A DNA stretch of 64,000 nt from Candidatus Algichlamydia australiensis (GTDB lineage: Bacteria; Chlamydiota; Chlamydiia; Chlamydiales; JAJFMI01). The position numbers are program-made. Positions 60,001 to 64,000 of this stretch are shown piece after piece. Location of the stretch: contig JAXCHI010000003.1 in assembly GCA_033977065.1 (NCBI GenBank), positions 628,875 through 692,874 of the forward strand, given 5' to 3'. Numbering within the stretch: position 1 is the first letter of the stretch; each line of letters opens with the position of its first letter.

Positions 60001-63000
60001 GAGGTGTCTCGGGAGATCATGCTCATCAAATGAAGTGCTCCCCAAGATCTGTAACGGTTTGCTGGAAGTAGCCACTTAAGGCGTCATCTAGCCACTCTTT
60101 CCAGCTGCCCTCCTTATCTCCCTTTGGGATTTGGCACATGTGATTTTCTAAATTTTCAAAAAGGGCTTCAACGTCTATCATCTCTATCAAATTTTTCATC
60201 TTTTCGGTGGGGGCAAGAGCCATTAACAGTGTTTTTATTCCCCAGCTCACCGTCTCTATAAGGTTTTTCATTTTTTTGATGTAGGCAAGAACCATTAACA
60301 ATGTTTTGACTCCAAAGGCTACTTGTTTCCAGACACCCTGAACTCGGGCTGTAGTGAGATCGCTGCGCTTTAAATACGCTCTCTTCTCTGTACTGAATTC
60401 TTCTGAAAGAGCTTGAATATTTTTATAACTAGAGTGTTTTTGCTTAAGTTTGTGAATGGATTTCCGAATTTGCTTAAGCTCTTGCACAATTTTCTGTAAG
60501 TGTTTTTGCGACTCAACCCCACTTGCTGACTCTATCCAAGTTTGTAGTATTGGGGTGCTGCTAGGAATTGCTTTTGCGACCTCTTTGAGAGTAGATAAAA
60601 GTGTTTGGATGTCCTCTTTTTTTTGTGGGTTTGCTGCTAAGTCTTCAGCTTTTAGAAGAAGGGCAAAAGAGCTCTCTTCTCGCTCTTTGTTCATTTGCAA
60701 ATGAATATTGCGAATTTTGTGAAGATCCGCAGGCTCTGTTTTCCCGAGATCCTGATTTATCTTATCTCCCATCTCGTGTACAATCTTTTTCAAAATCTCA
60801 ACTCTACGCTCTTTTTCCCATGAGTAAAGTTGATGAGCATGAGGTAGAAAATCCTCTAAGCTTACGAGCGTTTCGGGAGAGGCTTTGCCTGAGTACTCTT
60901 TGGAAATCAAGCCGTAGGTAAAATAGTTTCCAATGCTTGATAAAAGCTGTTCTCCTGCAATATAGGTAAGAGTTCTGCGAGTTGTTCCTAAGAAAATCAA
61001 TGAGCTTTGAAAGAGATAGACCGCTCCGATAAAGGAGAGGACAGAGAGCGCAACGCGAATGATTTTTTCTTGCAGATTGTGGTGAATTTCATGATCAAGG
61101 TACTTATTTAAGATCTCGACACGATGTTCTTTTAGAAAAGAGTGCTTGAGGCGCTCTTTGTCACAAAAAAGTGTCACCTCATCTAAATTTTCAGCATTAG
61201 TTGTAAAATTTGCAATTGTTGTATCAACCTCTCTTCCTAAAATCGTATCGATGACCTTCCCAACCGGAATGAGTACAAAGGCAAGAGTACAGAGAACATT
61301 TCCTCCTATATACCCCCCAATCTCAATTGGGGATGAAACAGGAAAATAAGGAGCTGTATACTTCAAAAACAGAGCATATACTATTGTTGTTCCTGCTACG
61401 TAAGAAATTTTTGAAATTAAGGAGGAACTAGGAGGTTTAGAATCAATTGCTGCTACGCGCAATTGGAGGTCAGGAGCACCTTTTTCTATAGAAATATTTT
61501 TAATATACTCAATGGCAGTCGAATTCCCATTTCCATAAATAGAAGGGGGGAGTCGATGAGAAGAAAACGAGGGAATAAGAGATGTTTCAGCCATTTGTAA
61601 TAATAATCGTTAATTTGAATTATTATTATAAATAATTGAATAATTAATTGCAATAAGAGATTTGAAAATAAAGTAAAATTTTTAATATAATATATTTTCT
61701 ATGCAAGATTTGAAGATGAAGTACAATACATAATCCCCTACCCACTCTTTAGAGATGGTATTGACTTTCTTAAGGGGAGGGGAGAACTTAATCCCCTCAA
61801 GCATGCCAACAGCGTTTAGTATCCATAATACACTAGCTGTGGCTTTTAGGGCCGTGACAGTTATGTTTTGCACTTTTTCACTAAGTGTAGAGGCACTGTC
61901 GTTTCTCTCGTCAATTTCATCTTTCAAAGATTCGATCTCTCTAGGAAGAGCAGTATAATCACCGTACTCATAGCTATCAAAGGTTTTATCGAGGTAGCTT
62001 GTAAGAGGTGCTTTTTCATTTCGAGCCTTTTCAAAGACTCTCTTTCTCTCTTCAGGTTTTTTCGAATTTGGGAGATATTTTTTGATCTCCTCACTCTCAG
62101 GTAAGTAGCGATCAAGATAGGCTATTTTTTCAAGGAGGGTCTCTTCGCTAGAATTACCGGCATTCAATAACTCAACAACTTCGGCTTTTATTGTTGTTGG
62201 AAGAAGTTTATGAAGAGCTTGTCTTAGCGCAGTTCGTTTTTTGCTTTTTTGTAATTTTTTCTCCATAAACTTTTCTTGGTCTGCCCAAGTGGAAGAGTTT
62301 GGAAAATAGTTTTTAAGCTCTTTGTTTTCAGGGTAATATTTTTGAAGCTCTGAAAGCTTTACCATTAAATCAAAGCGTTTTTCTTTCTTTTTTTTGTCAC
62401 ACTTGATCTCTTCATATAGTCCAACCTCTTCATGTAAATTATGCACAAGAGAAAGGGGAAGCTGTGCAATTTTCTTCAATCTCTCTTTTTTAAGTTCATC
62501 TGTACTTTTTTCTTTCTTATCAACATGCCCACCACCAGCTTTTGAGATCTCATCGGCAAATTTGCTCTTTTCGGTTTCCAACTCCATAAGAAGAATTTCC
62601 ATCTTTTTGCGGATACCTTTTGGATCGCTATCGGTTGTATTTTTGCTACAATCAAACGGGAGGGTCTCTTGGAGAGGGTTAAAAGTTTTGATAACGCTTT
62701 TTGCACCACTAGCTACTAGATTTTTGTAGTAGCTTAGGTGGTAAAATTCATCACTCGTTGTTTTAGGAACAAAGGTTTCAGGGAGTATCTTTTTTAAATC
62801 TTCCAATATTTTGGTTTTTGCGGATTGAATTTCCTTAGCGGCTTCGCTACCATCTTTGTTTGTCTCTGTATTTTTGATAAGGTTAAGTAAATCAGATTCT
62901 TTGCTGGGGTAAAAAGTAGCGAGTTTTTTAATATTTTTTAGGACCTCTTCTGCTTCAACTTGAGTTAGTTCTCCACTTAGTAATTTATAAGTTCTTTCCG

Positions 63001-64000
63001 TAACAGGGGTTTGCAAAAGTATCTTTCTTAAATCTTCCGATAAATTTCTATCTGTAGATTGAATTGTGCTAGTAGCTTTGCGCACCTCTTTGTCTGTTTT
63101 TGCATTTGAGATGAGGCTAAGTAAGTGGTCTGCTTTATCAGGATAAAAGATGGCAAGTCGCTGAATATTTTTTACCACTTCTTTTGCTTCGGGTTTCTTG
63201 GGCGTTCCCTGCAATAAACTATAAGTCCTTTCAGCGATTGCAATCGGAAGCTCTTTTTTTAGTTTTTCAATATCACTAGCTTTTTGATGAAGGTCTTTTG
63301 CCATGACAAGGTTATGCGAAAGTATCTTTCTTAAATCTTCCCTTGTTGTTTCTGTTGAAGATTGAATTGTCTTAGCAGCTTCGAGCAGCTCTTCACCTGT
63401 TTTTGCGTTTGATATGAGGTAAAGTAAGTGGCCTACTTTACCTGGATAAAAGATGTTAAGTTTCTGAATATTTTTTATGACCTCTTTTGCTTCAGTTTGA
63501 TTTAGTTCTGCACCTAGTAATTTATAAGTTCTTTCTATAAAAGGGGGGTGCAAAAGTACCTTTCTTAAAACTTCCCTTGTTGTTTCTGTTGAAGATTGAA
63601 TTGTCTTAGCAGCTTCGAGCACCTCTTTGTCTGTTTTTGCGTTTGAGATGAGGTTAAGCAAAGGATGTGCTTTATCTGGATAAAAGATGGCAAGTTTCTG
63701 AATATTTTTTACGACCTCTTTTGCTTCAGCTTGATTTAGTTCTGCACTTAGTAATTTATAAGTTCTTTCTATAAAAGGGGGTTGCAAAAGTATCTTTCTT
63801 AGAACTTCCCTTGTTGTTTCTGTTGAAGATTGAATTGTCTTAGCAGCTTCGAGCACCTCTTTGTCTGTTTTTGCGTTTGAGATGAGGTTAAGCATAAGCA
63901 AAGGATGTGCTTTATCCGAATATAAGGTGGCAAGTTTCTGAATATTTTTTACGACCTCTTCTGCTTTGAGTAGATTGAGCTTTCCCCGCAATAAGCTACA

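Follow-up and report, generated by a model that had tools for sequence, protein, structure and literature searches.

Clusters of genes for TMH/Inc proteins are reportedly present in Chlamydia abortus, C. psittaci and C. pneumoniae. Such clusters consist of tandem, fast-evolving paralogues at a variable locus, the proteins combining an N-terminal 'head' of paired transmembrane segments with a variable helical C-terminal part, and long tandem modules of 78 amino acids (aa) are not known as a feature of this family. Internal tandem repeats, varying in number between strains, occur in the secreted chlamydial proteins TarP, C. pecorum ORF663 and IncA; the TarP repeats are ~50 aa long, tyrosine-rich and disordered, and those of C. 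pecorum are units of a few codons. C. pecorum ORF663 is highly polymorphic and predicted to be secreted (PMC8703710). Inc proteins are recognised by two transmembrane helices and, between them, a loop of less than 30 aa (Dehoux et al. 2011; PMC3048545). Here we report on the gene EFCAOE_05490 of Candidatus Algichlamydia australiensis, a member of the Simkaniaceae and symbiont of the dinoflagellate Cladocopium, represented by a metagenome-assembled genome (MAG; PMC11317633). The gene extends across the end of the window, i.e. the whole analysed stretch of 64,000 nucleotides (contig JAXCHI010000003.1 of assembly GCA_033977065.1, positions 628,875 to 692,874), and encodes a protein with an array of tandem 78-aa units. 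It heads a set of co-directional genes which resembles the TMH/Inc clusters in its tandem, fast-evolving paralogues, in their combination of head and variable helical part and in its variable locus, in a different chlamydial family and with no sequence similarity detected. Unlike the repeats of TarP and C. pecorum, its unit is a folded-looking module with five predicted helices, and no homology between them was detected with Pfam; the combination characteristic of TarP (tyrosine-rich ~50-aa repeats plus actin-binding domains) is not found either, there being no Pfam match and the unit being 78 aa long and helical.

In our view, it is very likely that EFCAOE_05490 is a real, lineage-specific orphan gene for a protein with ~6 tandem 78-aa helical modules, shaped by duplication and gene conversion, and that it belongs to a small family, limited to the Algichlamydia clade, which also includes its neighbouring paralogues and a metagenomic protein, P0002. 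On the minus strand, the frame stays open for 772 codons from the window edge (64000) to a stop at 61682-61684, which is far beyond chance in DNA of 36-39% GC. The gene is listed as a "hypothetical protein" at contig_3 690,556-693,888, minus strand, in Table S8 of PMC11317633; with the conversion derived from that table (contig_3 = window + 628,874), the full gene corresponds to window positions 61682..65014 and 1110 aa, so the in-window portion is its 3' 70% and 338 N-terminal residues lie beyond the window. Residue numbers of the repeat protein are counted here from the window edge, not from the start codon. The frame is uninterrupted over the 772 codons seen and, by the authors' annotation, up to the start codon. 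The initial annotation had the array running off the window; this is borne out, but the annotated start lies just 1014 bp past the edge, which leaves space for about one further unit. The visible part of the gene is divided as follows.

61682..64000, minus strand: C-terminal 772 codons and stop of EFCAOE_05490 (open frame; Table S8 coordinates).
63971-64000, minus strand: unit 0, tail alone (SLLRGKLNLL, 10 aa), from translation compared with the other unit tails.
63731-63970, minus strand: unit A, 80 aa (unit hidden Markov model, HMM, 137 bits).
63497-63730, minus strand: unit B, 78 aa (unit HMM 148.5 bits).
63194-63496, minus strand: unit C, the variant of 303 bp, 101 aa long; an insert of 23 aa (~63245-63313) precedes its last helix (unit comparison).
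62960-63193, minus strand: unit D, 78 aa (unit HMM 140 bits).
62726-62959, minus strand: unit E, 78 aa, the most diverged, with a degenerate tail lacking ERTYKLL (unit HMM 110.7 bits).
62384..62725, minus strand: non-repetitive Lys/Glu-rich middle, residues 426-539, holding a run of five adenines (A5) on the gene strand (translation).
61928..62383, minus strand: two degenerate segments of ~76 aa, residues 540-615 and 616-691, each of the form Y-x-P-E...Y-x-P-N-S (mutual alignment; P0002 motifs align here).
61685..61927, minus strand: C-terminal region of ~80 aa conserved with P0002, with a marginally hydrophobic helix at residues 713-737 (61790-61864; BLASTP, hydropathy).

The repeat layout is exactly as first described: the CTTCC landmark recurs at 62800, 63034, 63337, 63571 and 63805 (spacings of 234, 303, 234 and 234 bp), with a period of 234 bp and a single 303-bp variant, and the module peptides originally quoted are correct on translation. 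Tandem Repeats Finder reports 63315-63966 as an array of 2.8 copies with period 234 (91% matches, score 1047), and a profile built from the five units scores these same units at 110-148 bits. The description of the units as near-identical applies to one pair, A and B, which share 94.4% of their DNA sequence and differ at 13 sites and by a 6-bp indel; all other pairs are only 63-82% identical, and unit E is 63-66% identical to the others. (In the phase used initially, the last three units are 81-91% identical.) Divergence rises from the youngest pair towards the 3' end. Identity is also distributed unevenly: a block of 51 nt is common to three units, and one of 90 nt is common to the last two and is followed by ~100 nt at ~79%. 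By a rough estimate, evenly distributed differences would be very unlikely to leave a run of 90 nt untouched, and such a patchwork, in which exact blocks alternate with diverged stretches, is what unequal crossing-over and gene conversion would be expected to produce.

Units A and B have diverged equally at synonymous and non-synonymous sites (0.058 each by the Nei-Gojobori count, which is approximate), and the ratio of the two (dN/dS) is ~0.4-0.9 for older unit pairs by the same approximate count. Across four rows of two consecutive units, 65 alignment columns are invariant, including FYP.K, LISNAKT, TIQS and ERTY.LL. Together with the dN/dS values of older pairs, these columns indicate that the protein is, or recently was, under constraint. 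The results as a whole are in keeping with a recent duplication, with gene conversion in patches and with purifying selection that is weak to moderate, and the recent expansion or gene conversion postulated at the outset is upheld by the closeness of A and B, their equally few synonymous and non-synonymous changes and the exact blocks beside more diverged sequence. The two additional residues of unit A ('ML') come from a perfect 6-bp tandem duplication, TAAGCA|TAAGCA, at 63889-63900, which could be a slippage event or a polishing artefact. The tail of unit 0 is closer to that of unit C (SLLQGTPKK) than to the tails of the adjoining A or B, and the array is therefore a mosaic rather than a simple gradient. 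The 23-aa insert of unit C was considered as a partial unit duplication and this was rejected, as its score of 32 is no better than that of shuffled sequences (27.8 +/- 3.9); nor does the insert have significant similarity to the remainder of the gene.

AlphaFold2 (AF2), run on the four-row alignment of consecutive two-unit segments, predicts an all-alpha structure with five helices per unit, of about 15, 7, 12, 12 and 10 residues (mean predicted local distance difference test score, pLDDT, 65.4; predicted template modelling score, pTM, 0.49). As a prediction, the secondary structure of the unit is credible, and the model does not establish its tertiary fold. The idea of a single protein built from 78-aa helical tandem units, with which the study started, agrees with this prediction as well as with the open frame and the spacing of the units. 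A Foldseek search of the two-unit model, itself of low confidence, against the PDB returned only chance-level helical matches (globins, G-protein-coupled receptors; best E 1.2, TM-score <=0.33).

Sequence-based family searches gave a similar picture. Pfam yielded no relevant match to a single unit or to the C-terminal 347 residues down to E = 1, and in a scan of the whole fragment (E cut-off 0.01) just a chance-level EutK_C hit of 17.6 bits, against a cut-off of 27.5 bits. No family for the repeat protein was found in NCBIfam, a sequence search of the PDB gave nothing below E 0.5, and no profile or fold match to the known helical repeat classes (TPR, Sel1, HEAT/ARM, ankyrin, PPR, spectrin) emerged from Pfam, the PDB or Foldseek. 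Scanning GTDB species representatives with the repeat protein revealed no relative, and an exact 44-mer scan of JGI metagenomes no match. A word-indexed protein search was also empty, yet it missed a 100%-identical protein of 265 aa (P0001) and is insensitive for a query rich in K, E and L, so its outcome is not evidence of absence. Profile searches with the C-terminal alignment and with the alignment of the N-terminal family discussed below recovered proteins of the same genome only.

An exhaustive phmmer search of 1.84 billion representative proteins produced two matches. One of them, P0001, is the C-terminal 265 aa of the same gene, called on a Logan contig. The other, and the only non-self match, is P0002, a hypothetical protein of 644 aa (E 8.6e-5) from an uncultured chlamydial metagenome (ENA ERZ23487379, scaffold_1417; locus L082). 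BLASTP aligns residues 589-770 of the repeat protein with residues 470-644 of P0002 at 29% identity (E 2e-11 to 5e-11), and the C-terminal domain has thus persisted since the split of the Algichlamydia and P0002 lineages. Besides a syntenic position, the two proteins share the C-terminal ~180 aa and the [LY]-[LY]-P-[DE] motif segments, and P0002 has one recognisable partial copy of the unit (KKIRELATLLPDKAPALHKLIKK); the shared C-terminal region comprises two Y-x-P-[DE] segments and a terminal block SVL-ILN...PLK-V...GD. P0002 carries the repeat motif in single, degenerate copies; the unit profile has one match there (residues 295-321, KKIRELATLLPDKAPALHKLIKKTEIH, 10.6 bits) and fainter ones further towards the C-terminus. 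P0002 differs from the repeat protein in that it is shorter and has no tandem amplification of the 78-aa module; its N-terminal domain is visible and like that of p522, the product of the gene next to EFCAOE_05490, whereas the N-terminus of the repeat protein is off the window. Over its N-terminal 250 aa, P0002 can be aligned to p522 (E 4e-9) as well as to the family of p352 and p347, encoded further downstream, and g324, encoded next to P0002 itself.

This relative bears on the part of the protein that lies outside the window. Table S11 of PMC11317633 places EFCAOE_05490 and EFCAOE_05485 (p522) together in OG0010958, one of 20 species-specific orthogroups, and the in-window homology of the repeat protein to p522 is negligible (E 0.014). 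As this homology is too weak to account for the grouping, the common part must lie in the off-window N-terminus, and since P0002 joins both domains in one protein, the unseen N-terminus would carry a p522-type membrane domain. The length is in accordance: of the 338 off-window residues, 68 would belong to unit 0, and the remaining ~270 aa are the size of such a domain. We thus infer that the off-window part consists of a membrane domain of ~270 aa and the rest of unit 0. The family of this domain (p522, p352, p347 and P0002; OG0010957 and OG0010958 in PMC11317633) is characterised by a length of ~250 aa, an IPVGK...LG..VDTTIA.F motif and a third hydrophobic helix.

Two claims made initially concern the C-terminal part. 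The motif segments YYPENKELKNYFPNS (YYPENK, residue 555) and RYLPESEEIKKYLPNS (RYLPES, residue 631), 76 aa apart, had been regarded as degenerate versions of the repeat unit. They are indeed related to each other (38% over 37 aa), but their tie to the 78-aa unit is weak (3.6 bits against the unit profile; hhalign E 0.08), so that their derivation from it is suggestive only. A hydrophobic C-terminal anchor, in turn, is not supported: there is a single marginal segment (residues 713-731, Kyte-Doolittle 1.53), and the homologous stretch of P0002 is not hydrophobic (windowed maximum 1.05, segment mean 0.58). An AF2 model of the C-terminal domain aligned with P0002 (pLDDT 45.6) is too poor to judge between a buried helix and a membrane anchor.

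Downstream of the repeat gene lies a co-directional array, defined by paralogy, hydropathy, orthogroups and alignment of the shared N-terminal domain.

57229..61594, minus strand: the array as a whole.
61595..61681, minus strand: AT-rich spacer of 87 bp between the repeat gene and p522, with a sigma-70-like TTGCAA-17-TATAAT at 61653-61625 and without a terminator-like site.
60026-61594, minus strand: p522 (EFCAOE_05485).
58971-60029, minus strand: p352, identical to NCBI SNF33_05430 of Ca. A. australiensis.
57835-58878, minus strand: p347.
57229-57825, minus strand: p198.

Scanning the array for promoters and terminators yielded no more consensus matches than chance would give over the whole region. 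The products p522, p352, p347 and p198 are paralogous and have hydrophobic N-terminal halves with two hydrophobic lobes 12 aa apart, which matches the spacing rule for Inc proteins in PMC3048545; in p522 the lobes lie at residues 59-77 and 90-120. With the repeat protein included, the array forms a five-gene block of ~7.8 kb (window 57229-65014) between pheT, which lies off the window (from ~65051 onwards) and stands immediately upstream of EFCAOE_05490 in Table S8 of PMC11317633, and a MORN lipoprotein gene. At five other chlamydial loci (L003, L004, L012, L014 and L015, from Parachlamydiaceae MAGs and other unclassified chlamydial MAGs), pheT directly adjoins the MORN lipoprotein gene, so that the array is a lineage-specific insertion or expansion at a conserved junction. 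The P0002 locus has a smaller version of the array: its gene order is a cut gene, P0002, g324, MORN lipoprotein, g67, SNF2 helicase and rhodanese, with ogt also in the neighbouring block, and the MORN protein encoded there shares 85.5% identity with its counterpart in the window. The smaller array suggests that, on the Algichlamydia branch, genes were duplicated and the 78-aa module was amplified internally. As to the wider relationships of this locus, L002 (MAG OFTM266) and L082 have MORN lipoproteins 83-85.5% identical to that of the window, and the SNF2 helicase of L002 is 70% identical; both are closer to Ca. Algichlamydia than the neighbours with 40-47% average amino acid identity in its description.

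What the protein does can be approached from this context. EFCAOE_05490 probably encodes a host-facing membrane or secreted protein, and is otherwise an ordinary lineage-specific gene. More specifically, we tentatively favour, at a little under an even chance, the reading that it is an Inc-like type III substrate with an anchor in an N-terminal bilobed domain and a multivalent helical array displayed to the host. The type III system whose genes lie elsewhere in the window would export the protein; its N-terminal domain would anchor it in the inclusion membrane, as in Inc proteins; the repeated helical modules would face the cytosol of the host and serve there as a spacer or as a surface for multivalent binding; and unit number and sequence could change quickly. 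The export machinery in question and its surroundings are as follows.

870-11640, minus strand: type III secretion cluster, comprising sctN (7022-8335), an sctD whose product has an FHA domain (9940-11640) and, at 870-2477, the gene of a PknD-like Ser/Thr kinase.

A GTP-dependent phosphoenolpyruvate carboxykinase is a further chlamydial hallmark in the window. As a separate observation, an open reading frame of 1771 aa at 32416-37731 on the plus strand combines YD repeats with an RHS-associated core domain, and its product resembles proteins of the polymorphic toxin type.

The organism is comparable to Inc-bearing chlamydiae in having a complete type III secretion system and living in an inclusion; inclusions are visible by transmission electron microscopy in Cladocopium (PMC11317633). 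Like the genes of Inc proteins as described in PMC3048545, the repeat gene is lineage-specific, specifies an alpha-helix-rich product and is clustered with bilobed paralogues. The initial annotation placed it at the head of an Inc-like array; co-directional genes for paralogous membrane proteins do follow it, whereas the epithet "Inc-like" derives from the hydropathy of these neighbours and from an N-terminus located off the window.

Several points weigh against such a role. The 772 visible residues show neither a bilobed domain (the one marginal segment at 713-731 has no second lobe) nor a secretion signal, the N-terminal 338 residues, where paralogy predicts the domain, being outside the window. 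In this the visible part is unlike Inc proteins, as it is in having no sequence similarity to described Incs in the Pfam scan. The hydrophobic segments of P0002 are weak (Kyte-Doolittle 1.2-1.43). The structural models are of low confidence (pLDDT 65 and 46 in our hands, 40.75 for the authors' AlphaFold model of the OG0010958 representative in PMC11317633), and Foldseek found no similar fold (best E 1.2). The dN/dS of ~1 between A and B and a frameshift in a short-read contig are also compatible with relaxed constraint. The Inc-like role is, after all, read from sequence and genomic context.

The alternative that survives best, although we deem it unlikely, is a non-secreted structural protein of the envelope, membrane or a developmental stage, in which the helical repeats serve as a spacer or oligomerisation rod and the paralogues are ordinary bacterial membrane proteins. 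The hydrophobic domains of p522, p352, p347 and p198 would fit inner-membrane proteins equally well, the Pfam and PDB sequence searches gave no family match pointing to host mimicry, and the secretion signal of the repeat protein would lie outside the visible sequence. However, lineage-specific, fast-evolving arrays of paralogues with paired hydrophobic segments are typical of Inc-type proteins (PMC3048545), the locus is inserted into conserved synteny, and the gene falls into one of just 20 species-specific orthogroups (PMC11317633).

A decaying or broken gene, i.e. a recently expanded and poorly constrained reading frame with functionless repeats on its way to a pseudogene, seems improbable to us. 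One argument for it is the 3415-bp Logan contig L001 (run SRR26803925), the single contig returned by an exact-protein look-up for p522; the gene is carried by one genome and this one short contig. It equals window 63366-59951 save one base: the A5 run of the gene strand (T5 on the plus strand, 62698-62702) is A4 at position 669 of the contig. With this 1-bp deletion, the otherwise uninterrupted frame would be broken, leaving two products, one of 295 aa and one of 265 aa. It could represent a genuine polymorphism in the population, a step towards a pseudogene or a fault of the assembly. The nearly equal dN and dS between A and B, together with the near absence of homologues among the 1.84 billion representatives, would also suit decay. 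Against this, the frame shows no interruption in the 772 codons of the window or the 1110 of the annotation, older unit pairs have dN/dS down to ~0.4 with many invariant positions, and the C-terminal domain is conserved with P0002 (29% identity).

The same contig confirms most of unit C, all of D and E and the C-terminal half of the gene, and its end at 63366 lies inside the 51-nt block common to three units, as expected of short-read graph assembly. The source assembly, a MAG of seven contigs with 42.1% GC, was built by metaFlye out of Nanopore R10.4.1 reads (10x coverage) and polished in two Pilon rounds with NovaSeq reads from DNA that had undergone multiple displacement amplification (MDA; PMC11317633), and its long-read basis argues against a collapse artefact. 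Of the alternatives, the least probable is that the repeat exists but that such an assembly created the number of units, or the closeness of A and B. In its favour, coverage is 10x, polishing used 150-bp reads from MDA-amplified DNA that map to multiple sites, Pilon can homogenise repeats, and the contig ending at 63366 leaves A and B without independent support. On the other side, the in-window array of ~1.3 kb (~1.5 kb with the inferred rest of unit 0) can be spanned by ordinary Nanopore reads, C (for the most part), D and E are confirmed base for base, and the 13 differing sites and 6-bp indel between A and B are not those of a simple duplicated consensus.

The Inc-like reading may be carried further, as a long shot. 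The 78-aa module could represent a new helical repeat fold, amplified in Ca. Algichlamydia from a single-copy motif still present in P0002, and could act at the inclusion membrane as a multivalent adaptor for a dinoflagellate host factor. The invariant motifs FYPxK, LISNAKT, TIQS and ERTYxLL are of surface type, and ERTYxLL fits YxxPhi and LIR-type patterns. If true, the protein would rank as the first candidate effector of host interaction that is specific to a chlamydia living with a photosynthetic host, and its avidity would be tuned by the number of units.

EFCAOE_05490 has already been published as a hypothetical protein, and those parts of the text and tables of PMC11317633 considered here are silent on the arrangement of its repeats, on its relative and on the context of its insertion. 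Taken without a host-directed role, it is an ordinary case of a fast-evolving, repeat-bearing orphan protein in an intracellular bacterium. Ca. Algichlamydia australiensis is the first chlamydia for which life in a photosynthetic host has been shown, and the 20 species-specific orthogroups were put forward by the authors of its description as candidates for host interaction, without further characterisation (PMC11317633). One of these orthogroups can now be given an architecture, comprising an inferred membrane head, six tandem modules of five predicted helices and a conserved tail, and a proposed origin, by insertion between pheT and the MORN lipoprotein gene and amplification of a repeat from a motif present in a relative.

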